Positions 1-42,809 are shown, numbered from the stretch's first letter. The stretch is 64,000 bases of DNA from an uncultured Alphaproteobacteria bacterium (GCA_947630965.1 CANRJO010000004.1:3143-67142), one strand, 5' to 3'. Numbers and translations: made by a program. The notes: generated by a model from the sequence alone, not told the origin.

Positions 1-27
1 TGTATTCAGAGGTTTTTAAGCTAGCAA
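1..27 (-). terminator. Partial copy (cut by window edge) of the conserved hairpin terminator downstream of WG-repeat gene 30..713
   Basis: Positions 1-20 (tgtattcagaggtttttaag) match the 3' arm of the hairpin that recurs at 791-827, 1523-1557, 1953-1988, 2869-2904 and 3656-3694. Confidence 0.4.
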
Positions 28-29
28 GG

Positions 30-713
30 CTAAGCTTCCGCAACATTCGCATTATACAAAAGATAGCCGTCTTTTGTTTCAAACAAGCAGAAATCATCAT
101 AAGCGCCGCCGTCTTTTAATTTGTCTTCAACGAGCGAGCCGTCTGGCCAATGCAATGTCAAATCGTCGACCGTTTGCAACATGTAGCAACCGCTCTCAAA
201 AACACCGCACCACTTGAGTTTGTCAGCAACAAGTGATTCGTCTGCTCGGTACAAAGCACAACCCTCAGTTGTTTCCAACCTGTACCAACCGTTGTTATAA
301 ACATCACAATTTTTCAGTTTATCGGCAACAAGTGAGCCGTCCGCCCGATACAAAGCACAACCCTCAGTTGTTTCCAACATGTACCACCCGTTGTTAAAAA
401 CATGACAGTCCTTGAGTTTATTGGCAACAAGTGATTCATCTGCTCGGTACAGAGCCCAATAGCCCTCTTGTGTTTGAAGCACATACCAACCATTGTCATA
501 GACCCAAGCCTCAATCAGCTTATCAGAAACGAGCGATTCGTCTGCTCGGTACAGAGCCCAGTAGCCCTCTTTTGTTTGAAGCTCATACCAACCATTGTCA
601 AAAATACCATAGCCATAAAGCTTATGAGCCACCAGACTTCCGTCCGCCCGATACAAAGCAATGTTTTTAGCTGTTTCGCGCACATACCAACCATTTTTAA
701 AAGTCGTTTTCAT
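30..713 (-). CDS. Repeat protein with six ~33-aa NGWY..ALYRADGSLVADKL repeats (WG/KWG-like beta repeat), no signal peptide
   Basis: 227-aa ORF; internal tandem periodicity is visible in the translation; paralogous to 840..1445, 1576..1875, 2005..2793, 3012..3557 and 3706..4362. Confidence 0.8.
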   Translation of the reverse strand: MKTTFKNGWYVRETAKNIALYRADGSLVAHKLYGYGIFDNGWYELQTKEGYWALYRADESLVSDKLIEAWVYDNGWYVLQTQEGYWALYRADESLVANKLKDCHVFNNGWYMLETTEGCALYRADGSLVADKLKNCDVYNNGWYRLETTEGCALYRADESLVADKLKWCGVFESGCYMLQTVDDLTLHWPDGSLVEDKLKDGGAYDDFCLFETKDGYLLYNANVAEA

Positions 714-754
714 AATTTTTATTCTTAATAGTTAAACAAAATAATTTTCTTTGG

Positions 755-790
755 AAGTAAATATTAACCTCTTTTGAAGAGGAGTCAACA
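755..790 (-). promoter_or_regulatory. Sigma70-like promoter for gene 30..713 (minus strand TTGACT-N16-TAATAT), embedded in the U-tract of the upstream gene's terminator
   Basis: Minus-strand reading gives ttgactcctcttcaaaagaggttaatatt. The same module recurs upstream of every paralog, followed by a conserved 5'UTR (aaagaaaattattttgt). Confidence 0.45.
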
Positions 791-827
791 AAAAACCTCC
801 GAACACGTTACGTATTCAGAGGTTTTT
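787..827 (-). terminator. Rho-independent terminator of gene 840..1445 (inverted repeat aaaacctccgaaCAC..GTAttcagaggtttt plus T-run)
   Basis: Near-perfect inverted repeat followed, on the minus-strand transcript, by UUUUUUGUUG; conserved behind each paralog. Confidence 0.6.
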
Positions 828-839
828 AAGCTTGCAAGG

Positions 840-1445
840 CTAAGCTTCCACGCCTTTCGCATGATGCAAGAGAGAACCTTCTTCTGTGTCCACTATATAA
901 AAATTAGCATCAGGCTCACAGTCTTCTAAGTTGTCAGCAACGAGCGAGCCGTCTTCCCGATACAGAGCCCAGAAGTCCTCTTGTGTTTGAAGCGCATACC
1001 AACCGTTTTCATAGATATCGCACCACTTGAGTTTGTCAGCAACGAGCGAGTCATCTGCCCGATACAAAGCAAAACCTTCTTCGGTTTCCAAGCTATACCA
1101 ATCGTTGTTAAAAAGATCGCAATCTTTTAACTTATCAGCAACGAGCGATTCACTGGCTTTATACAAGGCATAACCTTTTTTGGTTTCCAATATGTACCAC
1201 CCGTTGTCAAAGACATGACACCACTTGAGTTTATTGGCAACGAGTGATTCATCCGCCCGATACAAAGCCCAACCGCCCACTTGTGTTTGAAGCACATACC
1301 AACCATTGTCATAGACCCAAGCATAAATCAGCTTATCAGCAACCAATGAACCGTCAGCTCTGTATAAAGCTTCTCTGTTGAGCTTCTTTTCCAGATACCA
1401 CCCGTTTTCAAAAATAATCTCAATGTTTTTTAAAATAATCTCCAT
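840..1445 (-). CDS. WG-like repeat protein paralog (201 aa, 5 repeats)
   Basis: Same repeat consensus as 30..713. Confidence 0.8.
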   Translation of the reverse strand: MEIILKNIEIIFENGWYLEKKLNREALYRADGSLVADKLIYAWVYDNGWYVLQTQVGGWALYRADESLVANKLKWCHVFDNGWYILETKKGYALYKASESLVADKLKDCDLFNNDWYSLETEEGFALYRADDSLVADKLKWCDIYENGWYALQTQEDFWALYREDGSLVADNLEDCEPDANFYIVDTEEGSLLHHAKGVEA

Positions 1446-1487
1446 AATTTTGATTTTTATGAATTACACAAAATAATTTTCTTTGGA

Positions 1488-1523
1488 AAAAAATATTATC
1501 ATTTTTTTAAGGAGAAGTCAACA
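1488..1523 (-). promoter_or_regulatory. Sigma70-like promoter for gene 840..1445 (TTGACT-N17-TAATAT on minus strand)
   Basis: Minus-strand reading gives gttgacttctccttaaaaaaatgataatattt. Confidence 0.45.
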
Positions 1524-1557
1524 AAAAACCTCCGAACACGTTACGTATTCAGAGGTT
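1519..1557 (-). terminator. Conserved hairpin terminator of gene 1576..1875
   Basis: The aaaaaacctccgaacacgttacgtattcagaggttttt inverted repeat. Confidence 0.6.
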
Positions 1558-1575
1558 TTTCAATTTGCACAACTT

Positions 1576-1875
1576 TTAATAATACTTTTTGATCAAAGTG
1601 CCATCAGATTTGTATAAAGCAGAGTACTCTTTTGTTCGCAGATAATAGGTGCCATTATCATAAACATCACAATCTTTCAGCTTATCAGCCACAAGTGATC
1701 CGTCCGCCCGATACAATGCACAACCGTCAGCTGTTTCCAACATGTACCAACCATTGTATCTATAAACATAGCACCACACCAATTTGTCAGCCACCAGACT
1801 TCCGTCCGCCCGATACAATGCAATGTTGTTGGTTGTTTTGATCATATACCAACCATTTTTAAAAGTTTTTTCCAT
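1576..1875 (-). CDS. WG-like repeat protein paralog, short (99 aa, ~2.5 repeats)
   Basis: Same repeat consensus; its C-terminal ...YKSDGTLIKKYY motif is shared with the paralogs 2005..2793 and 3706..4362. Confidence 0.7.
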   Translation of the reverse strand: MEKTFKNGWYMIKTTNNIALYRADGSLVADKLVWCYVYRYNGWYMLETADGCALYRADGSLVADKLKDCDVYDNGTYYLRTKEYSALYKSDGTLIKKYY

Positions 1876-1917
1876 AAATTTAAATTTTTAATAATTACAC
1901 AAAATAATAATTTTCTT

Positions 1918-1953
1918 GAGCGGATATTATCATTTTTTGAAGAGGAGTCAACA
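1918..1953 (-). promoter_or_regulatory. Sigma70-like promoter for gene 1576..1875 (TTGACT-N16-TAATAT)
   Basis: Minus-strand reading gives ttgactcctcttcaaaaaatgataatat. Confidence 0.45.
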
Positions 1954-1988
1954 AAAAACCTCCGAATACATCGCGTATTCAGAGGTTT
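1949..1988 (-). terminator. Conserved hairpin terminator of gene 2005..2793
   Basis: The aaaaaacctccgaatacatcgcgtattcagaggttttt inverted repeat. Confidence 0.6.
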
Positions 1989-2004
1989 TTGTTTAACATA
2001 ATCT

Positions 2005-2793
2005 TTAACAATACTCTTTTACCAAAGTGCCGTCTGGTTTGTATAAAGCGGCATACTCTCTGTGAAGGTAATAGGATCCGTCTTCATAAACATCGCAATC
2101 TTTCAGTTTATCAGCCACAAGCGATCCATCCGTCCGATACAAAGCACAACCGTCAGCTGTTTCCAACATGTACCAACCATTGTCAAAAACATCGCAGTCT
2201 TTTAACTTGTCAGCAACGAGTGTTTCATCCGCGCGAAAGAGAGAAAGACTGTCTTTCATTCCGAGCATATACCAACCATTGTTGTAAATGCGGCACCATT
2301 TCAGTTTATCGGTAACAAAAGACTCATCTGCGCGATACAAACTCCAACCATCAGCCGTTTCCAACATATACCAACCGTTTTCATAAACATTGCATGAAAT
2401 CAGCTTGTCAGCCACCAAACTTTCATCTGCCCGGTACAAAGCCCGATTGCCGGATGTTTCCAACACATGCCAAGCATTAGGATAAACATAGCAGAAATCC
2501 AACTTGTCAGCAACGAGTGATTCGTCTGCTCGGTACAAAGCGATACCTTCTTCAGTAATCAGTTCATACCAGTCATTGTCATAAACAAAACAGTCTTCTA
2601 AGTTGTCAGCAACGAGCGATTCGTCTGCTCGGTACAAAGCGGCGCCATAGAATGTTTTCAACACATACCAACCATTGTCAAAAACATCATAGTCATCAAG
2701 CCTATTAGCCACCAGACTTCCGTCTGCCCGATACAAAGCAATGTCTTTAGCCGTTTCGACGACATACCAACCATTTTTAAAAGTCGTTTTCAT
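2005..2793 (-). CDS. WG-like repeat protein paralog (262 aa, ~7 repeats)
   Basis: Same repeat consensus. Confidence 0.8.
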   Translation of the reverse strand: MKTTFKNGWYVVETAKDIALYRADGSLVANRLDDYDVFDNGWYVLKTFYGAALYRADESLVADNLEDCFVYDNDWYELITEEGIALYRADESLVADKLDFCYVYPNAWHVLETSGNRALYRADESLVADKLISCNVYENGWYMLETADGWSLYRADESFVTDKLKWCRIYNNGWYMLGMKDSLSLFRADETLVADKLKDCDVFDNGWYMLETADGCALYRTDGSLVADKLKDCDVYEDGSYYLHREYAALYKPDGTLVKEYC

Positions 2794-2834
2794 AATTTTT
2801 ATTTTTAATAGTTAAACAAAATAATTTTCTTTGA

Positions 2835-2869
2835 GAACAAGGTTATCACAATTTTAGAAGGAGTCAACA
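2835..2869 (-). promoter_or_regulatory. Promoter-like module for gene 2005..2793 (TTGACT-N16-TAACCT, weaker -10)
   Basis: Positional homolog of the other cassette promoters. Confidence 0.35.
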
Positions 2870-2904
2870 AAAAACCTCCGAATACATCACGTATTCAGAG
2901 GTTT
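2866..2904 (-). terminator. Conserved hairpin terminator, ~100 bp downstream of gene 3012..3557
   Basis: The aaaaaacctccgaatacatcacgtattcagaggtttt inverted repeat. Confidence 0.55.
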
Positions 2905-3011
2905 TAAGTTGCGGTTACAAAATGAAAGCCGGATAACTTACTCTTTGAGGAGTGTTCCGTCAGCCTGATATGATAAAATCTTATCGCCTAAGGTTTTCAT
3001 CTTATACATAA

Positions 3012-3557
3012 TCAGATTCGGGTAAATATAAAGCCGGATAAAACCTTGCCGTCTAAGGTTATCATCTTATACCGCCCATCGTCGTAAACGCGGCAGCATT
3101 GCAGTTTATCAGCAACAAGCGATCCATCCGCCCGATACAAAGCTCGGCCGTAAGTTGTTTCCAACTCATACCAACCATTAGGGTAAACATAACAGTCCGC
3201 CAACTCTTTAGCCACCACAGTTCCGTCAGCGCGATACAAAGTGATACCCTTATTCGTTTCTAGGGCGTACCAATCATTTTTATAAACATTGAACCACATC
3301 AAGTTGTCAGCCACAAGCGAGCCGTCCGCCCAATACAAAGAAAGGCCTTTCTTTGTTTTCAAATTATACCAATTGTTCTCAAAAACATTGCAGGAAAGCA
3401 ATTTATCGGCAACCAAGGAGCCGTCTTTCCGAAACAGAGCCCAACCATCAGGCGTTTTCAGCTTATACCAACCGTTTTCAAAGACATGAGCGTGTTTAAA
3501 ATGAAAGTGATAAACCTTACGCAACCGCAGTCCGATTTTTTTAAAAATAGTTTTCAT
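3012..3557 (-). CDS. WG-like repeat protein paralog (181 aa) with a basic N-terminal leader (MKTIFKKIGLRLRKVYHFHFKH) shared with 3706..4362; its 3' end appears rearranged
   Basis: Repeat consensus present. A frameshifted remnant of the family C-terminus (…YKMKTLGDKILSYQADGTLLKE*) lies at ~2937-3008 on the minus strand. Confidence 0.7.
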   Translation of the reverse strand: MKTIFKKIGLRLRKVYHFHFKHAHVFENGWYKLKTPDGWALFRKDGSLVADKLLSCNVFENNWYNLKTKKGLSLYWADGSLVADNLMWFNVYKNDWYALETNKGITLYRADGTVVAKELADCYVYPNGWYELETTYGRALYRADGSLVADKLQCCRVYDDGRYKMITLDGKVLSGFIFTRI

Positions 3558-3601
3558 AATTTTTGTTTTTTTTAATAGTTATACAAAATAATTTTCTTTC
3601 A

Positions 3602-3638
3602 AAACAGATATTATCACATTTTTTGGCAAAAATCAACA
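3602..3638 (-). promoter_or_regulatory. Sigma70-like promoter for gene 3012..3557 (TTGATT-N17-TAATAT)
   Basis: Minus-strand reading gives ttgatttttgccaaaaaatgtgataatat. Confidence 0.4.
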
Positions 3639-3649
3639 AAAAACTATCA

Positions 3650-3694
3650 CAAATCAAAACCTCCGAATACGTTAAGTATTCAGAGGTTTTAGGC
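3650..3694 (-). terminator. Conserved hairpin terminator of gene 3706..4362
   Basis: The aaaacctccgaatacgttaagtattcagaggtttt inverted repeat. Confidence 0.55.
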
Positions 3695-3705
3695 GAACGC
3701 AGTTT

Positions 3706-4362
3706 TTAACAATACTTTTTGATCAAAGTGCCGTCCGGATTGTATAAAGCAGAACCTTTTTTGGTTTCTATTTCATAATCTCCGTTGTCAAGGACATTGC
3801 ACCATTTCAGCTTATCAGCAACCAAACTTTCATCTGCCCGATACAATGCCAAGCCCTTAGCATTTTCCAACATATACCAACCGTTCCAAAAAACAGAACA
3901 ACTTTTAAGTCTGTCGGCAACAAGGCTTTCATCTTTTCGGTGGAGTTCAAAACCTTTTTCAGTTTTAAGCTCATACCAACCGTTACTGTAAACGAAAAAG
4001 GTTATCCAGTCAGTGGCGACAAGCGATTCATCCGCCCGATGCAATTTCCAACCGTCAGCCGTTTGCAACATATACCAACCGTTTTCATAGATATCGCACC
4101 ACTTGAGTTTGTCAGCCACAAGCGTTTCATCTGCCCGATACAAAGCATAGCCTTCTGTGGTTTTAAGTTTAAACCATCCGGTACCACATACGTGACAGCC
4201 CATTAGTTTATCTGCCACAAGCGAGCCATTTTTCCGATACAACGCCCAACCGTCAGGCGTTTTCAAGGCATACCAACCGTTTTTATAAACATGTCTGCGT
4301 CTGAAACAAACGTGATAAACCTTGCGCAACCGCAGTCCGATTTTTTTAAAAATAATTTTCAT
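3706..4362 (-). CDS. WG-like repeat protein paralog (218 aa) with a basic N-terminal leader
   Basis: Same repeat consensus; first gene of the array. Confidence 0.8.
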   Translation of the reverse strand: MKIIFKKIGLRLRKVYHVCFRRRHVYKNGWYALKTPDGWALYRKNGSLVADKLMGCHVCGTGWFKLKTTEGYALYRADETLVADKLKWCDIYENGWYMLQTADGWKLHRADESLVATDWITFFVYSNGWYELKTEKGFELHRKDESLVADRLKSCSVFWNGWYMLENAKGLALYRADESLVADKLKWCNVLDNGDYEIETKKGSALYNPDGTLIKKYC

Positions 4363-4411
4363 AATTTTTGTTTTTTAAGTAGTTATACAAAATAATTTTC
4401 TTTCAAGTATG

Positions 4412-4450
4412 TTTGTATTATATTTTTAGGGAAAGTTCAACACAAAATTG
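4412..4450 (-). promoter_or_regulatory. Promoter-like region for gene 3706..4362 (TTGTGT-N17-TATAAT on minus strand)
   Basis: Minus-strand reading gives ttgtgttgaactttccctaaaaatataat; followed by the conserved 5'UTR. Confidence 0.35.
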
Positions 4451-4470
4451 CTTACTAAAAAAAGCGATTT

Positions 4471-5085
4471 TTAGGACAAATGTTTCAGAATGTTTTGGAT
4501 AGAAGAATCAATAAGTGCGGAATGCTTTTTTTCATCAAAGGAATGAAGAATATAATTTTCTGCCACGGCTGAAGCTTTTTTACCGATGGCGGTATAAATT
4601 TCATCTTCGGCTTTTTCAAGCATAAAAGTCATATTTTGTTCGGCTTCCGCCGTGCGTTTTTTGAGCTCCGCATTAAGCGAATTTGTCATATTCCGTTTAT
4701 GGCGCAAAGCCGCCGTATGCGCAGAGGATATAATGGCATCAGCTTCATCTTGAGCGTTCACAAAACGTTTTTCATAATCCGCCAAAAGCAGTTGCGCATC
4801 ATCGCGAAGTTTTTGAGCCTCCTCGATTCGTGCAATGATACTATCGCGGCGTTTAATGAGCATATTTTTAAGCAAGCCACCCACAGGTTTTGCCAAAGCC
4901 ACCACCACAAGCACAAAAGCAACGCCCACCCAAAACTCGGCGGACAAATAAAAAGGCTCATTTGGGTGCGGGCTGAAAGTGCCGGCATCTTCTATAAGAG
5001 CAATTTCCTCATTTACGTTTTGTGCCATGGTTTTCCTTTGATGAATATTTTTCAAGATCGCTAATTTTAACAGCGCCCACATCAA
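4471..5085 (-). CDS. atpF: F0F1 ATP synthase subunit b
   Basis: 204 aa; N-terminal TM then a long charged coiled coil; last gene of an atpI-B-E-F'-F order typical of alphaproteobacteria. Confidence 0.8.
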   Translation of the reverse strand: MMWALLKLAILKNIHQRKTMAQNVNEEIALIEDAGTFSPHPNEPFYLSAEFWVGVAFVLVVVALAKPVGGLLKNMLIKRRDSIIARIEEAQKLRDDAQLLLADYEKRFVNAQDEADAIISSAHTAALRHKRNMTNSLNAELKKRTAEAEQNMTFMLEKAEDEIYTAIGKKASAVAENYILHSFDEKKHSALIDSSIQNILKHLS

Positions 5086-6784: not shown

Positions 6785-7539
6785 TATTCACCCTTATTTT
6801 CAAGCCTTTTTTCAATATAGCTTTTAAGAGAATCATAGCCCGAAACGCCATAAATAATCTCATTTGAGCCATTACCGCTAATTAAGAAAGCGGGCGTGCC
6901 CTGCATTTTAAGCTTATCGATTCCTTCTTGCCTGTTTGCCAAAATCTGTTCGGCAAGCTTATCATTTTTAAGGCAATCTTTAGCGGCCGTGTTAGAAAGA
7001 CCGTTTGCTTTGGCATATTTAAGAAGATACTCTTCCGTACTGGAGGAAAGCATCCATTCACGTTGTTTTTCAAAAACCATTTTAATGTAATTATCGCGGT
7101 TTTTGGGGTTTACACATTCAGCAAGCATAGCAGCCTGCATAGATTTTTTTTCAAGCGGAAAACTCACAAATACAATGTTTAACTTGCCGCTTTCAACAAA
7201 ATCTTTTTGAAGATCCGGCAAAATGCTCAAATGAAAATCAGCGCAGTGCGTGCAACTCAAAGAAGAAAGTTCAAACATTGTTAAGGGTGCGTCAGGGTTG
7301 CCAATCAGGTTGTTTTTGGGAAAATTAAGAGCCAAATTTTGATCCAAAACAGTCGCAATGCCGTTTGTCTCAAGCTGTGTTTCATCTGGAAGGGTTTCCT
7401 CCGCATTTGCGGCTTTAACCAAAACAAAAGTGCCATCCTGATAAACAAAGCCCTTATAAGAAAGATAAAGATAAGCAAAGAAAACATAAACGACAACCGA
7501 AGAAATAACGGCGCTAAAAATTCGTATAAATTTTTCCAA
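6784..7539 (-). CDS. DsbA-family thiol:disulfide oxidoreductase (thioredoxin fold, CTHC active site), N-terminal signal anchor
   Basis: 251 aa; CXXC motif SCTHCADFH; N-terminal hydrophobic segment. Confidence 0.7.
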   Translation of the reverse strand: MEKFIRIFSAVISSVVVYVFFAYLYLSYKGFVYQDGTFVLVKAANAEETLPDETQLETNGIATVLDQNLALNFPKNNLIGNPDAPLTMFELSSLSCTHCADFHLSILPDLQKDFVESGKLNIVFVSFPLEKKSMQAAMLAECVNPKNRDNYIKMVFEKQREWMLSSSTEEYLLKYAKANGLSNTAAKDCLKNDKLAEQILANRQEGIDKLKMQGTPAFLISGNGSNEIIYGVSGYDSLKSYIEKRLENKGE

Positions 7540-17339: not shown

Positions 17340-17508
17340 ATCAAAAAAACGCTTGCAAATTTAAGATTTTTATTTAACATAATTTTTGCCGTCTATGGGC
17401 GGTGGTGTCTCAAAAACACTTTTCTACTAAACTCCTTGTTAAGGGGAGTTTCCGACATAAGGCTTTTGCTCGAATAAGGAAGACTGGTTAGTAGCAGTTT
17501 TTGAGCTC

Positions 17509-17538
17509 CCCACCTTTTTTATAAAGGTGGTTTTCTTT
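17509..17538 (+). terminator. Rho-independent terminator-like hairpin (ccaccttt-tttat-aaaggtgg plus TTTTCTTT)
   Basis: Perfect 8-bp stem plus a T-run, ~170 bp after the addA stop and directly before the RBS of ORF 17557. Confidence 0.4.
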
Positions 17539-27911: not shown

Positions 27912-29534
27912 CTAAATCTTTGTCCGAGTTTCAGGTAACAACGGCGATTCTAAAACCACCGGTGTTAACAAAATAACCAAAATTGAACGTGTTTTTTCGG
28001 CTTGAGCTGTACCACCTAAAACAGAGGCGTCTACGGAGCCCACACCTGTCTTATTCGCCGAGTTTTCAACACGCTCATAGCCACTTAACACCAAAGTTTC
28101 ACCGGAGGTCATAGCCACCTCTTGGGTAAAGCCACGTGTTTCGATAATCGGGTTTTGAATATATTGACCGCTGTTCGGATTATCCGGATCATTTGATCCG
28201 CCCAAATCCACACGTTCCAAAGCAATCAAATCCGAAAGCGTTAAGTTAAACAGCATCATCAAACGACCATGTTCCAAAATACGCGGCAAAATATCAAGTG
28301 TGAAACCGGTTTCAATCTCTTCTGTTTCTGTTGAAAGATCATAATAAGAACCGTCACTTCCCGAGTTTGTTTTTGTAATTTCGGAAATATAGTTTTGCGT
28401 TTGAATAACTTGAATAGGCGCAGGCTTATTGTTTAAAGTTGTGACCGTGCCGCTTGTAACCAAGTTTGTTGTGCCTTGTTCAGAAAGCGCTTGGAAAACA
28501 GAGTTAAAAGACCATCCGCCTGAAACAATGTTCATAGCAAGCGTATTCGGCACTTCGGCGCCCAATCCGCCGGCGCCGGCAACGCCCACGCTCCGAACGG
28601 CGTTTTCCGTACTGGAAAAGGCTGCGTTTAAGTCTAAGCCGTAACTATCACTATCTGTAATATTAACCTGCAAAACTTTAACACTAATGGCCACTTGGCG
28701 TGACAAACGAATATTTTGCTCATTCACAAACTTGGCAACTTTACGAATATCCATCGGCGTACCGGTTAAAACAATGGTACCGTTAGATTGATCTGTTGTG
28801 AGCGTTGCGCCTTTACTGATCATATTTTTGATGGAAGATTCAATGTTCGTCCACAAATCAATATTAGCGCTATTGGTTAATGAAACAGAAGATGAACCGG
28901 CGCTACCTTCTGTTGAAGATCCGCCAACGTTAACCGAAAGTGATGGCTTTGTCGGCAAGGAATAAAACACGAAGGTTTTTGTAATATACTTATAAAATGT
29001 AATCTGCTTCTTTTCATATTTCCACCAAATACCAAAACGGTTAGAAACCTCATCAAGCAAACCGCTCAAAGGACCTTTGTAAGAGAGTAACATTTTGGTA
29101 CTATCCGTCCACTGTGCGCCAACGGTTTCAATACTGGGTTGGTTATCATCGGCAAGCTTGGAAGCGTCAACATCCAAGTCATTTTCGTAGCGCACGGAAA
29201 GCGATGTGATTTTATTAATCATATCACCAATTTCGTAAAGGGTGATCGGACGATTGCTGATAAGCGTCACGCCGTCAGGTGCTTCCAAATAGCTTGGTAA
29301 GGGCTGACCTTCATATTCAACCTCGCTTGTGTCGCCAAGCCAAATATCATCCTTAACGCGCACCACATCAACCGGTGCAGGCGGAGTAGGTACTTTAGCC
29401 TCTTCTTTCAAGCGCACGGTATTTTCAACCTCGCGCTCAAGTGTCGAGTCCAAATCTGTTGAAACGGAGCAGGCCGCCAACAAACCGATAGCAGCAACGC
29501 CGAAGATATTTCCGACAGAATTAATCAAACGCAT
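27912..29534 (-). CDS. Secretin lipoprotein (GspD/PilQ superfamily; TcpC/BfpB/R64-PilN-like)
   Basis: Start chosen at Met MRLINSVGNIFGVAAIGLLAAC (lipobox LAAC). C-terminal secretin domain (VILLTPVV, GSVDASVLGGTA...). Confidence 0.8.
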   Translation of the reverse strand: MRLINSVGNIFGVAAIGLLAACSVSTDLDSTLEREVENTVRLKEEAKVPTPPAPVDVVRVKDDIWLGDTSEVEYEGQPLPSYLEAPDGVTLISNRPITLYEIGDMINKITSLSVRYENDLDVDASKLADDNQPSIETVGAQWTDSTKMLLSYKGPLSGLLDEVSNRFGIWWKYEKKQITFYKYITKTFVFYSLPTKPSLSVNVGGSSTEGSAGSSSVSLTNSANIDLWTNIESSIKNMISKGATLTTDQSNGTIVLTGTPMDIRKVAKFVNEQNIRLSRQVAISVKVLQVNITDSDSYGLDLNAAFSSTENAVRSVGVAGAGGLGAEVPNTLAMNIVSGGWSFNSVFQALSEQGTTNLVTSGTVTTLNNKPAPIQVIQTQNYISEITKTNSGSDGSYYDLSTETEEIETGFTLDILPRILEHGRLMMLFNLTLSDLIALERVDLGGSNDPDNPNSGQYIQNPIIETRGFTQEVAMTSGETLVLSGYERVENSANKTGVGSVDASVLGGTAQAEKTRSILVILLTPVVLESPLLPETRTKI

Positions 29535-30507
29535 TTTCGTCCTCCATTGTTTCAACAACCAAAACTCTGTTACCATTATAAAAAGTAGCAATCGGCGCAG
29601 GTCTTGCGCGAGCAAAAGCTCTGATAAGCGCGGAGCTCACATCAGCAAAACGACCGCGGAAAATAGCACCGGCGCTCAAAACATAATTACGGTTTGTGTT
29701 CCAAACCAATCGCCAACCAGATTCTTGACTCCATTGTGTCAGCAAAGCTTTCAAATTTTGTCCCTCGTCGGCAAACCAGTCACGTACAGGGTCATCCACA
29801 GGAGCGGAATAGGGCTCATCTTCAACATAAACTTCTTCCCTCTCATATCTGTTCCTGTCATATCTGCCTCTGGTTCTTTCTCTATCATATCTGTCCATAA
29901 CAACGCAATCTTCGCCACCCTCTTCTTCAATGCACTCGTCTTCAAAAACCAAATCCACATCTGTTCCCGCGGCAGGTGCTCTAGAGCCTGATCCCTTTCT
30001 GGCGGAATGCTTGCGAGCAGGGCGCGCGCGTACTTTCTTGGATGTGTCTTTCTTAACCTCACGAGCCGGATGGTATGAATCATCTTCCGCAGCGTTAGCC
30101 ATTAAAGCGGCATCGTCAGAGACTTGCTCTTGATAAACAACAATCTCATCTTCAATTGACGGGGGAATAGATGCCGAAATGTTGTTACCTGCTGCGGCTT
30201 GAGAAATTCTTTGATCTCTCGGTGTGCGCTCACCAAAACGTCTGAAGTCAGCGGGCGTGCGCGTAAAATTCACAAAAGGATCTGTAGCGCAGAGGCTCGG
30301 ATCGCCGCTTTCTTGGCATATTTCGGGAAGCGCTGCCGGCTCATAGGGTTCTTCAACCATATCAGCCGTATAATATTCATCGCTGCAGTTTGGACCGAAG
30401 CACTCATTATTGCCATAGCGCGAATTAATCCATGAACAGCCTGAAAGGCTAATCAGACAAAGCGCTAAAACCAATTTATTGTTCATATTTATTCCCCTGT
30501 TATACAT
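29521..30507 (-). CDS. Lipoprotein with C-terminal TcpQ/PilL-like domain (also the DotD family fold)
   Basis: Signal plus lipobox LISLSGC; C-terminal LTQWSQESGWRLVWNTNRNYVLSAGAIFRGRFADVSSAL resembles the TcpQ domain; acidic/basic low-complexity middle. Confidence 0.6.
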   Translation of the reverse strand: MYNRGINMNNKLVLALCLISLSGCSWINSRYGNNECFGPNCSDEYYTADMVEEPYEPAALPEICQESGDPSLCATDPFVNFTRTPADFRRFGERTPRDQRISQAAAGNNISASIPPSIEDEIVVYQEQVSDDAALMANAAEDDSYHPAREVKKDTSKKVRARPARKHSARKGSGSRAPAAGTDVDLVFEDECIEEEGGEDCVVMDRYDRERTRGRYDRNRYEREEVYVEDEPYSAPVDDPVRDWFADEGQNLKALLTQWSQESGWRLVWNTNRNYVLSAGAIFRGRFADVSSALIRAFARARPAPIATFYNGNRVLVVETMEDENAFD

Positions 30508-32503: not shown

Positions 32504-32794
32504 ATGAGAGATATGATCTTAAAAGCCGTTGCCCAGCCGCCCAAAATTTTTTGGGGGCCCGTGTTGCCTGTTGCGTTAAACGCTGGTTTACAGTTTCCGT
32601 TTATGTTTATGATGATTGGTATCGGCGATGTCAACCCATTGTTTTTTGTGGTCAGCATTATTTTAGTCCATACAGGCATTGTCCTTTATGGCACGCGAGA
32701 ACCGCATCTTTCGGCGATGATTCAGGCGTTTGGTCAAACAAACGTAGTCTCGCATAACCTTTATTCAGAGAGGGGGAATAAATTTGAGCCCTGA
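32504..32794 (+). CDS. virB3: Type IV secretion system protein VirB3
   Basis: ~97 aa, two hydrophobic segments; RBS AAAGGAA before ATG 32504; overlaps virB4. Confidence 0.65.
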   Translation: MRDMILKAVAQPPKIFWGPVLPVALNAGLQFPFMFMMIGIGDVNPLFFVVSIILVHTGIVLYGTREPHLSAMIQAFGQTNVVSHNLYSERGNKFEP

Positions 32795-35219
32795 TTTTGA
32801 TTTTTTCAGCTTATTTGCACAAGGTTTAAGCAATGTTGAAGTCATGGTTGCCGTCATCGGTATCATTTCCGCGGCGGCATTTGGCGTCTTGTTAGCCACG
32901 CGTTTTGGTAACTGGATTTTACCGCAACCGCGTGAATCTCGCGTGTCAGACTTTTTGCCTTTTGCGCGTTTAATGGAAGATGGTGTCACCATTCGTTGCA
33001 GCAATGGCTCATACGCGCGTGTTTTCCGCATCAACGGCATAGACCTTTCTTCCGCAACTGAAGAAAAAACTTATTCGATGATGGAAGCGCGCAAAGCCTG
33101 GATAGATAATATGTCCGAGCTCCAGATTGTTTGCCGCGTGATAACACTGCGTGATCTGACAGCATTGGAAAAAGCAGAAGGCGAGTTTAACAACGAAATT
33201 TTGGAAAAAGTTTCCGAAATTTGGTATGAAAATATGACTCGCATTTATACCAACACACATTATATTGTTATTTCTGTGGCGGATCGGAAAGACGCCATCA
33301 AAGACCTTAACTATGCCTCACAAAGTCTTGTTGCCACATTAACCGAGTATGGCGTTGCTCAAATGTACGAGGCGCCCGACAGTCCCGCAACCGATAGCCC
33401 GCTTTATCTTTTTAGCCGGCTTGTGAGCCCCATTTCTAAGCCTGAGCCCAAAATCCGAAACGCCCAAAATGCCGAACTCAATGAAATGTTAACAGCTGAT
33501 CACATACATTTCACCCGCGAACAAGGCATCATTCGGTTTTTCTCGGGCGATAAAGAAAAGTATGAAATTGCCATGGGCATTCGCACCACAGGTGATTATA
33601 TGGATGAGAATATGATTATGTCGCTTTTATCCATAGATTCAGAGCTTGTCTTGTTGCATAACATTCGCCCCATATTCAAGCCTCAAGCACGAATGATGCT
33701 TATTCAGCAACAGCGTATGGCTGTTTTAACAAGTTTTTCGCCGGAAGTTGTCAATCAATATTCCCAAGCGTTAGGAACCATTGAAGATTCAGACGCTGAT
33801 TATCAAGCTTTAACAGAATATGCCATGACGGTTTTAATCCGCGGTGAAACAAAAGAGGAGCTTGACTTTGGTGAATCTGAAGTTCAGCGTATTTGTCGTT
33901 CATTTGGTGTCACGCCAGTGCGTGAAGGTTGGGTGGCACAAGCCACATTTTTCAGCCAATTCCCAACTTATGACACTTACCCCCGGACATACCGCTATTT
34001 ATCGCGTGTTGTAGCCATGGCGGTGTGCTTTGATAAGCCTGCGGAAGGTTTTGGAAAGTCTGACTGGGGGCCGGGCGCCATTACGGTTTTCCGGACCATG
34101 TCGGGTTCGGCTTATCGGTTCCAATTCCACGTTTCTGCTGAAGAATCAGCTGTGGCGCACTGTTGCATTATTGGTCCAACCGGACAAGGTAAAACAACAT
34201 TGCTCACATTCTTGGCAGGGCAGGCAATGCGCCATTCTGATTTAAAAGTGTTCTTCTTTGACCGTCACCGCGGTGCTGAGATTTTTACCCGTGCCATTGG
34301 CGGTGCATACGTTGGTTTTGACGGCGATAATAAAAATGTTTCCTTAAATCCGTTTGATGCCGATAACACACCGAATAATCGCGCCTTTTTGCGCCGTTGG
34401 ATGAAGGCCATTACCCTGGCAGATGATGCGCTTTCCGAGCGTGAAATTGCTCGCGCGGTCACCACCGCGTTTGATTACTTGCGTCCTGAAGAGCGCGTGA
34501 TGAAAAACCTTTACAAAAGCTGTTTCTCGCCAACAGGAACGATGCGCCGCGAACTTTACAGGTGGATAAACCCTGATCAATATGGCAACATCTTTAACGC
34601 CGATACAGATAGTTTGGACTTAAAAGCCAAGCGCTTTATGGCATTTGACTTCACGCACATTTTTGAAGATGAAACCTTGGCGCCGGCGGTCATCAGCTAC
34701 ATCATGCACCGCATTCAATCTGAAACCGGCGAAACAGGTGTGCCGTCTCTGATTATGATTGATGAAACGGCGCCGATGCTCAAACACCCAATGTTTAGAG
34801 ATTACTTCATTATTGGTTTGCAGGAAGGTCGTAAAAAGCGCCAAGCATATTTGTGCGCGTTTCAACAGCCAAACATTATTGATAAACTTGGCGTTGGTGA
34901 GGTCATTCGTGGTCAATGCCAAACAATCATTTTCTTTAGAAACCCGCAAGCCATGCCTGAGGATTACGCCACATGGAACTTAACACAAGCGGAGTTGGAT
35001 TTTGTATTTGGTAAAACTTACCGCGAATTTCCGTATGCCATTTTGCTTTCGCGTCCGGCAACGGGTGAATCGGTTATTTTAGACGTTAATTTAGGCGCCT
35101 TAGGACCATACCTCAAGCTTTACAACTCAGGCCGGAAGAACGTTTTGCTTGTTGAACAACTCATTAAAGAATACGGCGAAGAAAACTTTGTTACAAAATA
35201 TTTAAATATTGGCGAGTAG
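32784..35219 (+). CDS. virB4: Type IV secretion system ATPase VirB4 (TTG start)
   Basis: 811 aa; Walker A CIIGPTGQGKTT, Walker B LIMIDETAP; RBS AGGGGGAA upstream. Confidence 0.9.
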   Translation: MSPDFDFFSLFAQGLSNVEVMVAVIGIISAAAFGVLLATRFGNWILPQPRESRVSDFLPFARLMEDGVTIRCSNGSYARVFRINGIDLSSATEEKTYSMMEARKAWIDNMSELQIVCRVITLRDLTALEKAEGEFNNEILEKVSEIWYENMTRIYTNTHYIVISVADRKDAIKDLNYASQSLVATLTEYGVAQMYEAPDSPATDSPLYLFSRLVSPISKPEPKIRNAQNAELNEMLTADHIHFTREQGIIRFFSGDKEKYEIAMGIRTTGDYMDENMIMSLLSIDSELVLLHNIRPIFKPQARMMLIQQQRMAVLTSFSPEVVNQYSQALGTIEDSDADYQALTEYAMTVLIRGETKEELDFGESEVQRICRSFGVTPVREGWVAQATFFSQFPTYDTYPRTYRYLSRVVAMAVCFDKPAEGFGKSDWGPGAITVFRTMSGSAYRFQFHVSAEESAVAHCCIIGPTGQGKTTLLTFLAGQAMRHSDLKVFFFDRHRGAEIFTRAIGGAYVGFDGDNKNVSLNPFDADNTPNNRAFLRRWMKAITLADDALSEREIARAVTTAFDYLRPEERVMKNLYKSCFSPTGTMRRELYRWINPDQYGNIFNADTDSLDLKAKRFMAFDFTHIFEDETLAPAVISYIMHRIQSETGETGVPSLIMIDETAPMLKHPMFRDYFIIGLQEGRKKRQAYLCAFQQPNIIDKLGVGEVIRGQCQTIIFFRNPQAMPEDYATWNLTQAELDFVFGKTYREFPYAILLSRPATGESVILDVNLGALGPYLKLYNSGRKNVLLVEQLIKEYGEENFVTKYLNIGE

Positions 35220-38795: not shown

Positions 38796-41700
38796 ATGAA
38801 GAAACACTTTCAATATGCTTTAATGGTGGCACTCTTACTTGGTGTTTTATCAAGTATACCTGCAAGCGCATTTTTCCCGCTTCCTCCAGGACCCACAACT
38901 CCGGATGCAGACCCCGCAACTGATACAACAAACGGTTTGGCGTATTATATGGAGCAATTAACCAAAAAATTTAATAATTTTGCCACCCAAATGGAAGATA
39001 CGTCAAAGAAAATCCAATCATTGGAGGACAAAGCATCATTAGTTTCTTTCCTTTCTGAAAAAACAGAGGCGGCAAAGGAAACTTTAAGTGTCAAGAAAGA
39101 AAAAGGGAAGTCATCTGTTGACAGCGCAAAGAAAATAGAAGAATGCACCATCGCAGATATTAAAAGCGAAGAGTCTGTGGCTGAGGCGTTTAAAAAATTA
39201 TTTACAAAATATCCTGCAGACATTTTAAAAAAGCACCCGCTCGATTCCAAAATTGTGACAACAGCATATCGCAAAAAAGGTGTGGAATTCAGCAATGATA
39301 TCATGATAGAGGCTTATCTTGTTTCGCGTCAGCTCCAAGAGCGCATGGACGCCTTGCGTGAAGATTATAACACACTTACCGAATGTTACGTTGATGGTAA
39401 GAAAAGCAATGGCGATTCTTGTAAAGCCGCATCAGATACTAGTGATGAAGTTGGCATAATAGTGAACTATTACAGACTAAATGCTATTTACGATTCGCTT
39501 TTACGCATTGCGGAAGAACTCACCGCTTTAAATGCACAATATCGAGCAGCGCAAACCTTGCGTGAAGGTATCAGACCAATTATGCCAGAAGAAGAGGAAA
39601 ACGCACAAAATAACAGCGAGGGCGATAACAGCGAGGGCGAAAATCAGGCATTTAACTTTAGAATGGTAGAAAAAATGTCTTTTGCGCAAATGTTGCCTTC
39701 TTCATCAGGAGAAGAGCCTCAACAAAAGCAGCCTGAAGAGCAAAACAACGCGCAAAATGATGAGAAAAAAGCTTCTCCTAATGCTAGCAAGCTTGATAAA
39801 TTAAGAGACGCATTAACCCCTGTCGTCATGAAAGAACCGGAGCTGTCTTCGCTTTTAAAGGGAACAGATAAAGTGTTTGAAGATATGGCACTTTATGATG
39901 AATTGTACGGTAAGCTCAGTAACGCGCAAAAAATTCACAATTTTAAGGTTGTTATGCCGTTTTACCGTGAAGTTTTTGTGAATGTGCGTCAAATAAGAAT
40001 ATTATATGAAGAAGCCTTAAAACGTCTTAACGCATCAAAGCAATGTGCTATCAATCATTTAACGACTTATTACGGCGGTATGGACTTTGAAGCATTCTTA
40101 AGTTGGGTGCGTTCATCTTATCAGGCAACAAAAGCCCAAACCGCAGTGGAGGTTACGGAAGATGAGTTTTCGCCGCGGCAGGTAGATGATTTTGCCGGCA
40201 CAGGCGATTTATCTCAAATAAGCGAGCTAGAAAAAACTTTGCGTGTTGAGCAAGATTCCGAAACAGGAGATAGCGCGCTAAGACACCCGAGCCTGGAAGA
40301 ACCTCATGAAAAAAATGTACGAGGGCAAGAAGTTTTGTCGTGGCTTATTGGCGAGCAGGCAGTTGAAGACATTAGTGCCGATATGAAAGCTTCAGGCGTT
40401 GGGACCGATAAAAAGCCTGAGGCTGTGAATGTTAAATGGGGCGTTCCCGTCAAGCCTTACCCGCTTTGGGAAGATGAAAAATACTTTTATAAAGAGTATG
40501 TTCTTCAAAAATATAACAATATGAAAATATTTATCCGAAATCTGAATATGCGTGGCGCAGTGGCAGAAATTGTGCAAACAATGCTCGATTCTTTAGATGC
40601 AGGGGAAGAAATTGATGATGTGCCCGCTGTTGATGTTAAGAACTACGGCAATAAAGCGTTAAGCCAACTTTCCGGTAGCCTTGGCGCACCTGATAAGGAA
40701 AATGCTGATCTTGAGGAGATTAAAAAGCAAATTGATGAAAGTTATAAAAAGATGGAAGAGACTAAATTACATTATAAGGAGCTTCTTGAATCGCTTGAAA
40801 GAAAAAAGCAAGGACTTTACCAAGAATATGATAATTATAATGTGGAGCTTACTTCTCTTAAAGAAGATTATAACAACTTCATGGATGAAAAGAACAAAGC
40901 AGATGTCAATGCTCAAACGCAAGATATTGTTTTAGACATCAACCAAGAGCGCATGGATAAGAGCAAATATGCAACGGATGTTCTTGCCAATATGGCAACC
41001 GAAGATAAAAAAGTGGCTGAGGAAACATCTGCTCAAAAGCAAAAAGAAGCTGAAGCGCTTTTAGAGAAGATGGAAATATTAAGGGAAAAAATTGATGATG
41101 TTCGTGCAAGAATTGATGATATAAAGAATTTAATAGAGGCCACTAAAGACGAATTTGGTGGAGCAATGTATGGGCTTAGCAAAGAAAATGAGGATCTTTG
41201 GGAGCAGGCTTGGGAACTTGCAGCCACGCCCAAAGACGATGTCACGCTCTCAAGCGCGTTAGATACGCTTTCTGATAAATCGGGCGATTTATATGCCATA
41301 TTCTCCGATATGGTTAGCACGGCAGATAATCTTATGGCGGATGCTGTAGCTGATGCCATAAAGCGTATTGATGAAGCCTTACAGCAATATGATGAGCTTG
41401 GTAAAGATTTTTATAAGCCGGAAGAGGCGGACAAGGTTTTAAAAATTCACACCGATTTAATGCGTGATTTACAAATGCAGCCCCTGAAATCAACTTTAGG
41501 AAGTTTTGAAGATGTGGTGGATTCCTCGCAAATTCTCAGTATGGCGCAAAACGTTTTTCAAAAAACATTAATGACGGCAACTTGCCAAGGGGGGAGTTGT
41601 TATGCGCCTGATACGGAATTTTTCGTAGGCCTTCCGGCAAAGGCAAGAGATTTTACCGCGCCCAAGAAAATTGAATATACATACACACCGCCAATGCGCG

Positions 41701-42809
41701 AGATTGTCCATTTTGACACAATAGATTATGACACAGTTGTTAAAACGGTTTTAGATGAGCTCGCTCGTGATGCGTTGCTTGAATATGACGAGAGCGCGTA
41801 CTTACCGGAAATATGGCATCGAATCTTGGGACCAAAAGGCTTTGTTGAAAATAATTTTAATGCCAAAAAGATGCTAGAGGCTATTGATCCTGAAAATACC
41901 GCTCCGTTGCTTAACGGGGGTGAATATCCTTGCAAAGCGGGCAAATATATCATCGGGTTTAAAGACAATGCCCTCACCTTGTGGCAAGAAAATGACAGTT
42001 CCTTGCAAGAGTGCTCAGGTATTGAGGAAATTGAAGTGCAGTCTTCAGGTAAAGTTAACGTAAATTTTGAAAATGGCGACCAAATAGTTGGAAGAATGTC
42101 TTCAGACTTTAGCGATGAAGATGCCGAATCTATGTGCAATTCTAGTGAACTGGCAACACTTCTTTCTTATACTGGAAAGTACACTTATAATGGGAAGTTG
42201 AAAGAAATTTACAAATTCTTTGCAGAAGCTTATGATGGTAAGAATTTATCTGAAAGCGATAGCGGTAAAGTGAGAGTTTATAAAAATGCCTTACTGGTTC
42301 GCAACCAATTTGGCGATTATCTGAACTTTGTCGAGTTGGTAGAAAATTATAAAAAAGTTTTAGATGAAATGGAAGTAAAGCTTGATGAAACACGTGAAAG
42401 CATAAAAAAATCTCTTAAAGTCATAAATTATGAGCCGCCGGCAGATTTTGATTTGGCTGACAAAGCAACATATGACGAAATTATGGAAAAGCTTGAAACG
42501 GCTAAAAATGGGCTTATTGAGGAAGTTGTGCCGAAAATAAAAACAATGCATCAAGGCAATGAAGGTATGGATGAAAACATCCAAAAACTGAAGGATATGG
42601 TCAGTGCGCTTCAGCTTGATAAAGACGAGGTTGTTTCACTTTCGGATAACATGAAAGGCGATAGCGAGCTAGCTGAAAAAATTAAGTCAAAAATGGCTGA
42701 TATTGAAATTGTAAACCGCTATAATAAAGAAGCAGAAACAGCGGCGGAAAAAGAAATCAGAAATTTCGGTACGCCTTACTGCGCAAGCACATGTGATTTC
42801 GGTTCTTAG
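38796..42809 (+). CDS. Giant secreted protein (1337 aa), T4SS-associated; no internal TM segments, so not a canonical VirB6
   Basis: Signal peptide (SIPASA); long helical/coiled-coil regions; scattered Cys pairs; C-terminal CASTCDFGS. Confidence 0.45.
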   Translation: MKKHFQYALMVALLLGVLSSIPASAFFPLPPGPTTPDADPATDTTNGLAYYMEQLTKKFNNFATQMEDTSKKIQSLEDKASLVSFLSEKTEAAKETLSVKKEKGKSSVDSAKKIEECTIADIKSEESVAEAFKKLFTKYPADILKKHPLDSKIVTTAYRKKGVEFSNDIMIEAYLVSRQLQERMDALREDYNTLTECYVDGKKSNGDSCKAASDTSDEVGIIVNYYRLNAIYDSLLRIAEELTALNAQYRAAQTLREGIRPIMPEEEENAQNNSEGDNSEGENQAFNFRMVEKMSFAQMLPSSSGEEPQQKQPEEQNNAQNDEKKASPNASKLDKLRDALTPVVMKEPELSSLLKGTDKVFEDMALYDELYGKLSNAQKIHNFKVVMPFYREVFVNVRQIRILYEEALKRLNASKQCAINHLTTYYGGMDFEAFLSWVRSSYQATKAQTAVEVTEDEFSPRQVDDFAGTGDLSQISELEKTLRVEQDSETGDSALRHPSLEEPHEKNVRGQEVLSWLIGEQAVEDISADMKASGVGTDKKPEAVNVKWGVPVKPYPLWEDEKYFYKEYVLQKYNNMKIFIRNLNMRGAVAEIVQTMLDSLDAGEEIDDVPAVDVKNYGNKALSQLSGSLGAPDKENADLEEIKKQIDESYKKMEETKLHYKELLESLERKKQGLYQEYDNYNVELTSLKEDYNNFMDEKNKADVNAQTQDIVLDINQERMDKSKYATDVLANMATEDKKVAEETSAQKQKEAEALLEKMEILREKIDDVRARIDDIKNLIEATKDEFGGAMYGLSKENEDLWEQAWELAATPKDDVTLSSALDTLSDKSGDLYAIFSDMVSTADNLMADAVADAIKRIDEALQQYDELGKDFYKPEEADKVLKIHTDLMRDLQMQPLKSTLGSFEDVVDSSQILSMAQNVFQKTLMTATCQGGSCYAPDTEFFVGLPAKARDFTAPKKIEYTYTPPMREIVHFDTIDYDTVVKTVLDELARDALLEYDESAYLPEIWHRILGPKGFVENNFNAKKMLEAIDPENTAPLLNGGEYPCKAGKYIIGFKDNALTLWQENDSSLQECSGIEEIEVQSSGKVNVNFENGDQIVGRMSSDFSDEDAESMCNSSELATLLSYTGKYTYNGKLKEIYKFFAEAYDGKNLSESDSGKVRVYKNALLVRNQFGDYLNFVELVENYKKVLDEMEVKLDETRESIKKSLKVINYEPPADFDLADKATYDEIMEKLETAKNGLIEEVVPKIKTMHQGNEGMDENIQKLKDMVSALQLDKDEVVSLSDNMKGDSELAEKIKSKMADIEIVNRYNKEAETAAEKEIRNFGTPYCASTCDFGS

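Follow-up and report, generated by a model that had tools for sequence, protein, structure and literature searches.

Six repeat-protein genes downstream of the atp F0 operon

At one end of a 64-kb stretch of DNA from an uncultured Alphaproteobacteria bacterium (hereafter, the window), within positions 1-4450, one short amino acid repeat containing the motif NGWY is used over and over in six consecutive small genes, which raises the question of what has been copied here, a protein, a whole expression unit or a piece of repetitive DNA, and what the copies might do. We find that each gene almost certainly lies in a cassette of its own, with a promoter, a leader and a terminator hairpin, and that the six genes probably belong to a lineage-specific NGWY-repeat multigene family of uncultured gut-type Alphaproteobacteria, carried in autonomous monocistronic cassettes.

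An earlier account made from the DNA letters alone (the sequence-only reading) had described six minus-strand repeat-protein genes of 99-262 aa, and the coordinates of the open reading frames (ORFs) and their division into units agree: six minus-strand ORFs of this size lie downstream of the atp F0 operon. Cutting the proteins at the NGWY motif gave 35 units of 33-34 aa each, and a 99-nt period was recovered independently from the DNA of the array. The first gene, g1 (3706..4362), encodes 218 aa (isoelectric point (pI) 9.0), in which a basic N-terminal segment of ~21 aa comes before five full units and a single terminal one, and g2 (3012..3557) encodes 181 aa with a basic N-terminal segment, four full units and a truncated last unit (pI 9.2) that has an aberrant ending (...KVLSGFIFTRI). 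They are followed by g3 (2005..2793; 262 aa, a terminal unit after seven full ones, pI 4.3), g4 (1576..1875; 99 aa, three units), g5 (840..1445; 201 aa, five full units plus a degenerate terminal one, C-terminus ...HHAKGVEA) and g6 (30..713; 227 aa, six full units plus a degenerate terminal one, C-terminus ...YNANVAEA). With the degenerate last unit included, g1 to g6 contain 6, 5, 8, 3, 6 and 7 units, so that the earlier figure of 2.5-7 copies per gene becomes 3-8. Nor are the genes purely repeats, as had been thought, because g1 and g2 begin with a very basic non-repeat segment of ~21 aa (KIGLRLRKVYH.CF...). In g1 this segment (KIGLRLRKVYHVCFRRRHVYK) looks inserted: the positional counterpart of g1 in a related lineage (3706-4362 compared with 7055-7351 of locus L027) has the same MKIIFK start and then runs directly into NGWY. 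The segment is found again in many paralogues at two other family loci, L008 and L016.

Aligning the 29 full units gave the consensus CxV[YF]xNGWYxLxTxxGxALYRADxSLVADKLxx, in which L19 and V27 never vary and N6, W8, Y9, D23, L26 and L31 reach at least 90% conservation. Polar and aromatic residues are conserved in every unit (N6, W8, Y9, T13, Y20, R21, D23, S25, D29 and K30), and eight columns are hypervariable (2, 5, 10, 14, 15, 17, 32 and 33). By charge the proteins form a basic group (g1, g2 and g4; pI 8.3-9.2) and an acidic group (g3, g5 and g6; pI 4.3-4.6). None of the six contains a hydrophobic stretch (maximum Kyte-Doolittle value over 15 aa ≤1.19), and therefore they have neither a signal peptide, as had been noted before, nor a transmembrane segment.

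A hairpin, a predicted promoter and a leader for each gene

We found five matches to the hairpin AACCTCTGAATAC-N5-GTATTCGGAGGTT in the window, only after g1-g5, with zero expected by chance. Directly folded, the five complete hairpins (~37 nt, minus strand like the genes) reached -22.8 to -25 kcal/mol with z-scores of -6.8 to -7.8. The hairpin after g1 (3655..3691) has a 16-bp stem and the loop UUAAC (-24.7 kcal/mol); those after g2 (2871..2905; -25.0 kcal/mol), g3 (1955..1989; -22.8 kcal/mol), g4 (1525..1559; -23.6 kcal/mol) and g5 (792..826; -23.1 kcal/mol) each have a T-tract that continues into the -35 box of the next gene. The tract reads UUUUUUGUUG in these four and UUUUGAUUUG after g1. 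A sixth hairpin, after g6, is cut by the start of the window and contig, leaving its 5′ arm (AAAAACCTCTGAATACA) at 1..19, also on the minus strand. The same ~37-bp inverted repeat had been proposed to end each gene, and it is indeed present as five complete copies and one cut at the window edge. A stable stem-loop followed by a U-tract, one per gene on the 3′ side, is predicted to act as an intrinsic terminator. While a generic terminator scan picked up just one of the five hairpins, missing four because their A/T stem ends absorb the T-tract, direct folding settled the matter.

Since there is one hairpin per gene and it lies on the 3′ side, it is the gene's own predicted terminator rather than part of the next promoter. 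We rejected the hairpin palindrome as an operator of the downstream promoter on the same grounds, there being none upstream of g1; L008 also contradicts it, with a last hairpin that no promoter follows and a 40-bp insertion between a hairpin and a promoter. An integron gene-cassette array, which has promoterless cassettes with imperfect attC sites beside an intI integrase and a common Pc promoter, likewise does not describe the locus: each gene here has its own predicted promoter, the stems of the hairpins are perfect and lead into U-tracts, and the one tyrosine recombinase in the vicinity, of XerC/D type, is encoded 3.7 kb away inside a conserved housekeeping block.

Across loci and species the stem core GAATAC...GTATTC is invariant, the loop varies freely and the outer stem pairs show compensatory changes (CCTCTG/CGGAGG, CCACTG/CAGTGG and CGCC/GGCG, with CCCTCGGATAT/ATATCCGAGGG at locus L013). 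Between species, the terminator stem is much better conserved than the coding sequence (window 786-3693; L008 10395-13698; L016 3284-4227; L021 4463-4495). This conservation hints that the hairpin may have a role beyond termination.

Upstream of the genes, near-consensus -35 and -10 hexamers at 16-18 nt spacing predict sigma-70 promoters, all on the minus strand. For g1 (promoter and leader 4363..4445) the best reading is TTGTGT-17-TATAAT (4445-4417), followed by a conserved leader motif at 4387-4403. The promoter of g2 (3558..3636) reads TTGATT-17-(TGA)TAATAT (3636-3608; motif 3583-3599), and that of g3 (2794..2867) reads TTGACT-16-(TGA)TAACCT (2867-2840; motif 2816-2832), with a degenerate -10 box. 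Those of g4 (1876..1951), g5 (1446..1521) and g6 (714..788) read TTGACT-16-(TGA)TAATAT (1951-1924; variant motif AAGAAAATTATTATTTTGT at 1899-1917), TTGACT-17-(TGA)TAATAT (1521-1493; motif 1468-1484) and TTGACT-16-TAATAT (788-761; motif 736-752). The sequence TTGACT-N16/17-TAATAT, previously assigned to every gene, is therefore exact for g4, g5 and g6, whereas g1, g2 and g3 deviate from it. A TGn extended -10 is present in four of the six predicted promoters, and the spacers, 16 or 17 nt long, contain A6-A8 runs. The -35 box had been placed inside the U-tract of the upstream terminator; it directly follows the hairpin T-tract, as in GGAGGTTTTTTGTTGACT, g1 having no upstream hairpin. In a generic promoter scan of a 9.2-kb region there was no enrichment over shuffled sequence (24 vs 19.8), and therefore the evidence for these promoters is their conserved position, not their count.

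The leaders are ~40 nt, A/U-rich and unstructured (folding z about 0). Five of the six carry the leader motif AAAGAAAATTATTTTGT without a mismatch (0.18 expected) and that of g4 has a variant 2 nt longer, which upholds the earlier description of a conserved 5′ untranslated region. The motif includes an 11-bp A/T palindrome, AAAAT-T-ATTTT, and is also kept in L008 and L016; the leader element AAAATTATTTT sits within the 40-nt leader. A Shine-Dalgarno-like sequence precedes none of the six repeat genes, compared with 17 of 25 other window genes checked. We considered a riboswitch or small RNA in the leaders and dropped it: the leaders do not fold, and Rfam gave no match at the gathering score in the whole window and none at E ≤ 1 for positions 1-4600.

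The atpF stop codon is at 4471, and the gap between atpF and g1 holds no convincing terminator (-5.6 kcal/mol, z -2); therefore, g1 may also receive read-through from the atp operon. Given good promoter and terminator signals, independent and strong transcription of each gene is plausible.

A new sequence family in uncultured Alphaproteobacteria

Kinship with WG_beta_rep, KWG or MORN had been raised for the repeat and did not hold up. By hmmscan against Pfam, neither these families nor MORN_2 matched the six proteins at E ≤ 1 or 18 family members at E ≤ 10, and no NHL or WD40 match appeared even with the 18 members at E ≤ 10. No match to Kelch, PQQ or another propeller repeat family was found in Pfam or NCBIfam. 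For the six proteins, scans of NCBIfam and PHROGs gave nothing credible, PADLOC gave no family at E ≤ 0.1, and the best match among PDB sequences reached only E = 0.36. Sub-threshold matches to IRF-3, PUB62-63_C and phrog_23963 were treated as spurious, repeat-inflated noise. The literature yielded nothing relevant on the NGWY repeat motif.

A profile of the unit was then compared with 1.84 billion representative proteins, giving 60 matches at E ≤ 1e-3, of which 16 reached E ≤ 1e-10. Large weak matches (MucBP, SH3b, SpaA/SdrD and WD40 proteins) cover half a unit only and are not members; with these excluded, the true family comprises a few dozen (about 30) small proteins without a Pfam domain. 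Where the source of a relative could be traced, it was an uncultured alphaproteobacterium, in most cases from an animal-gut-type sample. Among one genome each of 185,579 species there is a single family locus, L008, in an uncultured Alphaproteobacteria metagenome-assembled genome of another species (Lapin-001__bin79). Its four tandem genes encode 176, 349, 252 and 347 aa with 5-10 units, and its cassettes have the same hairpin, promoter and leader at another chromosomal site, near 5S/23S rRNA genes. A more distant pair consists of P0001 (369 aa) and a 169-aa paralogue, annotated as 'hypothetical protein [Alphaproteobacteria bacterium]'. The samples in which the organism of the window occurs (ENA ERZ27249596, ERZ27249325 and ERZ27249588; runs ERR10663746-49) also contain a second array, L016, with three genes (194, 251 and 118 aa) downstream of rpsM-rpsK-rpoA and a cassette made of a homologous hairpin, a TTGAYT...TGATAATAT promoter and a AAATTATTTTGT leader, as well as a lone 74-aa, two-unit gene at another site (L021, 4255-4479). 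L016 (2692-4658) and L021 have similar coverage and probably represent additional loci of this genome or of a sister genome. No relative was found in JGI metagenomes by protein pattern or hairpin DNA pattern, nor among IMG/VR viral contigs or PLSDB plasmids, so that the family is not evidently phage- or plasmid-borne.

Every family locus seen adjoins highly expressed housekeeping operons. The array studied here lies downstream of atpF (4363-4470), L009 (8001-11653) lies between priA and atpHAGDC, L016 (1207-4658) downstream of rpoA, L013 (3228-5270) near rplL and L008 (9854-14893) near 5S/23S rRNA.

The units are predicted to fold as four-stranded blades

AlphaFold2 models built from paralogue alignments were confident for both proteins modelled, with a predicted local distance difference test score (pLDDT) of 93.8 and a predicted template modelling score (pTM) of 0.76 for g3, and 96.3 and 0.85 for g4. 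Both models are all-beta, and DSSP assigns four strands to each unit (SLVADKL, CxVY, NGWYxLxT and GxALYR). When searched with Foldseek against PDB and BFVD, the top matches were all beta-propellers (designed Cake/Scone, NHL, WD40 and PQQ), at 8-14% identity. The sequence-only reading had suggested testing for a beta-propeller or beta-solenoid fold; the four-strand, all-beta units are predicted with confidence, and the propeller likeness is loose only (TM 0.3-0.58). In these models the units loosely resemble beta-propeller blades, and the chain as a whole may form either a closed ring, as in propellers, where an N/C-terminal 'velcro' usually seals it, or an open arc. With its predicted four-stranded antiparallel beta-meander, the NGWY unit resembles the blades of its top matches (6tji, 6tjg, 7ax2, 7qrw, 8j72 and DCAF1), and in having near-identical consecutive units the proteins resemble the designed Cake/Scone propellers. 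Natural propeller blades are roughly 40-60 aa. The NGWY unit differs in being just 33 aa long, in occurring 3-10 times per protein and in matching no propeller Pfam model.

Several other repeat proteins share single features with the family. WG_beta_rep (PF14903), KWG (PF07656) and MORN are also short beta-hairpin repeats with an aromatic-Gly motif in bacterial proteins of unassigned function, but the period and motif of the NGWY unit (NGWY...LYRADGSLVADKL) are distinct. Bacterial SH3b (SH3_3) shares the local hairpin motif NGWYxVxTxxGxxGW, which explains the weak profile matches to SH3b-rich proteins and to PDB 3npf; it is, however, a ~60-aa domain of another topology, and the similarity extends over ~12 residues and gives no E-value better than 0.05. 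Ralstonia RSL and Burkholderia BambL are soluble bacterial beta-propeller lectins without signal peptides. The NGWY proteins are likewise small, signal-less and aromatic-rich, and by analogy few-blade chains might form a multivalent surface, but there is no sequence match or convincing structural match to these lectins and the analogy extends only to a possible mode of action. Taken together, the NGWY proteins are a new sequence family of a familiar general kind, beta-repeat proteins with propeller-like blades, in a gene arrangement that is ordinary though neat.

Gene number differs between lineages and is the same in the assemblies of one strain

We compared the array with public assemblies of the same strain and of relatives. 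Two same-strain public contigs span the whole array and a third ends inside g6; all are 99.97-100% identical to the window and, within the array of this one strain, differ by at most one single-nucleotide polymorphism (SNP) and no indel. These contigs are uninformative on variation among strains, but they show that the cassette breaks short-read assemblies. Contigs L001 and L003, which reach the 3′ end of g6, stop just past its stop codon. As the window itself begins part-way through the g6 hairpin, further cassettes may lie beyond window position 1. In the lineage represented by L027 and L028, the flanks are 89.6-91% identical and colinear with the window up to the start of g1, and a single 98-aa, three-unit gene follows atpF, its leader being the same and its hairpin sharing the UUAAC loop of the g1 hairpin; next comes a DUF5131 gene, as it does after the L008 array. 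In a third lineage, at 92% identity, contig L026 stops within the first leader, and contigs often end at these cassettes. One gene versus at least six at the same site means that the array expands and contracts over evolutionary time, and within this genus-level clade, gene number at this position has changed between 1 and at least 6. Differences in copy number, for which the sequence-only reading proposed comparing strains, are seen between lineages, and the assemblies of this strain show none. The same cassette in L016 and L008, together with one versus at least six genes at this site, also supports the earlier suggestion that the whole expression unit was duplicated.

Window 17344-17521, located after addA, matches L028 3448-3625 (80% identity), where it follows DUF5131-ASCH, and neither DUF5131 nor ASCH is present in the 64-kb window, which implies an inversion or rearrangement with one breakpoint at the distal array end. 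The segment is conserved non-coding sequence with no Rfam match.

The units themselves are old. Over a 27-codon core, the 29 units have a mean nucleotide identity of 66%, with a synonymous difference (pS) of 0.68, which is saturated, and a nonsynonymous difference (pN) of 0.25. Their ratio of 0.36 at saturated synonymous sites indicates that the protein is under purifying selection and that most units are ancient. The closest pairs, g3u7-g4u2 (94%), g5u2-g6u3 (93%) and g3u1-g6u1 (89%), are between genes at matching positions, which argues for whole-gene duplication or conversion and not for recent intragenic expansion; the longest near-identical stretch (181 nt, 91%) spans the leader and start of g3 and g6. 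One gene end has been rewritten: in g2, ...YKMKTLGDKILSYQADGTLLKE was replaced by ...YKMITLDGKVLSGFIFTRI through a partial tandem duplication in which the first copy lacks 40 bp. The displaced remnant of the original 3′ end (...YKMKTLGDKILSYQADGTLLKE; ...LSYQADGTLLKE) lies untranslated at 2905..3011 on the minus strand (region 2905-3080), and the rewritten end is identical in all three public contigs.

Such a locus could be read, as the sequence-only reading was inclined to do, as a contingency or antigenic-variation locus, whose repeats and cassettes would let a host-exposed protein family change quickly in size and in on/off state from strain to strain. Its model, the vlp genes of Mycoplasma hyorhinis, encode lipoproteins with near-identical repeats, and their long poly-A tracts switch at high frequency. 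Like vlp, the NGWY genes are tandem paralogues with their own promoters, A-runs in the spacers and variable in-frame repeats. The different gene number in 90%-identical lineages, the spread of 3-10 units across paralogues and species, the A6-A8 runs in spacers of 16 or 17 nt, a few inter-gene segments that at 89-94% identity are compatible with gene conversion, and the breaks of short-read assemblies at the cassettes would all suit this explanation. We nevertheless regard it as unlikely. With units 66% identical and synonymous sites saturated, slippage or frequent homologous exchange is improbable, the homopolymer tracts are short (6-8 nt), and three independent assemblies are identical bar one SNP, with no change in tract or copy number. 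No signal peptide, lipobox or invertase was found in the NGWY genes, which thus differ from vlp in lacking a lipobox, in showing no within-strain variation in these assemblies and in having diverged units and short tracts. Phase-variable loci have long tracts or near-identical repeats, which are absent here, and length heterogeneity among close strains, of which the assemblies covering the array show none. Of the earlier proposal that the locus is prone to recombination, the part that concerns gene number between lineages stands; current hypervariability is not supported, given units at 66%, a longest near-identical stretch of 181 nt at 91% and no length change among the assemblies of the strain.

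Immunity proteins, secreted substrates or satellite DNA

YwqK/MORN-variant and other repeat-type immunity proteins are known in polymorphic toxin systems, and by analogy the array might encode orphan, antitoxin-like immunity proteins, cytoplasmic beta-repeat paralogues that neutralise diverse polymorphic toxins. This would account for small, signal-less tandem paralogues that are individually promoted in a gut bacterium and have diversified surface positions and charge. It is very unlikely all the same: no toxin, LXG, Rhs-CT or secretion-linked gene adjoins any array, and no toxin-like neighbour was found in the window or at loci L008, L009, L013, L016, L021 and L027. The proteins match no Pfam Imm or MORN model and nothing in PADLOC, and their arrays adjoin housekeeping operons. 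That cassette and unit are conserved between species also speaks more for a core function of the lineage than for an arms race.

The window also encodes a type IV secretion system (T4SS) and a type IVb pilus, 15-55 kb from the array, and the NGWY proteins could in principle be their substrates, acting on the host or on competitors. The genes lie in a large secretion/conjugation-type region (window 18700-60000; GC 0.45-0.51 vs 0.40). Its pilus cluster, on the minus strand, includes a PilS-like pilin (21663-22226) and a secretin (27912-29615), along with T2SSF, a T2SSE ATPase, PilO and TcpQ. The T4SS genes encode VirB11-like (20692-21654), VirB4 (32784-35219) and CagX/VirB9-like (44686-46422) proteins. 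Giant proteins are encoded at 46419-50207 (1262 aa; beta-flower, DUF3659 and RHS repeats) and at 50119-54432 (1437 aa; a fusion of TrbI/VirB10 with beta-flower repeats), and two more, at 38796-42809 and 55535-59962, have no Pfam match. The region may represent a conjugative element that has integrated and whose core components are unusual in being decorated with repeats. Besides the presence of VirB4, CagX/VirB9-like, TrbI/VirB10-like and VirB11-like proteins and of the PilS/PilO/secretin/TcpQ cluster, the conserved basic N-terminal segment in a subset of paralogues would be in keeping with secretion. The idea is highly improbable, however, in that the region, with its higher GC, looks like a conjugative element, arrays at other loci are not near such genes, and the C-termini are neither basic nor like known T4SS signals.

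Finally, a non-functional satellite or repetitive extragenic palindromic (REP)-like DNA repeat that keeps its frames open would explain why the 99-nt period is regular, why other frames and the opposite strand also contain several spurious open ORFs and why a Shine-Dalgarno sequence is lacking, but it is effectively refuted by a pN/pS of 0.36 with saturated synonymous sites, by the conservation of frame, start and stop in other species and loci, and by AlphaFold2 pLDDT values of 94-96.

A proposed history and role for the NGWY cassettes

We therefore return to the NGWY genes as a lineage-specific family copied as whole cassettes. Unequal crossing-over at the repeated hairpin/promoter junctions would add or remove entire cassettes, and because the exchange falls at these junctions, every new copy would be born with its own promoter and terminator, and so insulated. 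The strong hairpins would insulate neighbouring genes, and translation would start independently of a Shine-Dalgarno sequence on the unstructured leader.

That the products are soluble multivalent binding modules is a tentative suggestion, drawn from the composition of the units. The conserved polar and aromatic columns, interspersed with variable ones, fit a repeated binding site with paralogue-specific surroundings: every unit would present the same set (N6 G7 W8 Y9, Y20 R21 D23, S25 and D29 K30), while the eight variable positions per unit, the number of units (3-8) and the charge (pI 4.3-9.2) would set the surface, valency and partner of each paralogue. Our preferred guess is that the ligand would be repetitive, for example a glycan or another polymer.

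Several points weigh against this account. The promoters, terminators and mode of translation are predictions; the -10 box of g3 (TAACCT) is a poor one, and atpF and g1 may share a transcript. Nothing ties the proteins to any ligand, and conservation of the polar residues could equally well reflect structure alone, through inter-unit salt bridges for instance. Without a signal peptide, as predicted, the proteins are also less likely to act in a classical way at the surface or towards a host. The structural matches are globally weak (TMq 0.30-0.51 for the eight-unit and 0.44-0.58 for the three-unit protein, with root-mean-square deviations of 5-12 Å), and the rewritten C-terminus of g2 suggests that some copies may be decaying.

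A more elaborate version, which we consider rather unlikely, would make the NGWY unit a compact 33-aa four-stranded blade arranged in a propeller-like or open arc of 3-10 blades, and the family a co-regulated set of lectin-like or polymer binders of graded valency in gut Alphaproteobacteria. The palindrome AAAAT-T-ATTTT would then possibly be an operator, and the terminator stem might serve also as a processing or cassette-recombination site.

If the family is real as described, it is an undescribed repeat family without a relative in Pfam, NCBIfam or PDB. With a confidently predicted fold and near-identical short blades, its proteins would be a natural counterpart to designed propellers of variable blade number. 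The layout, in which the T-tract of one gene is fused to the -35 box of the next and leaders lack a Shine-Dalgarno sequence, would be a clean example of the copying of a whole expression unit. In such a layout each new paralogue would be insulated and expressed from birth, a process that the contrast of one versus at least six genes at the same site would document.

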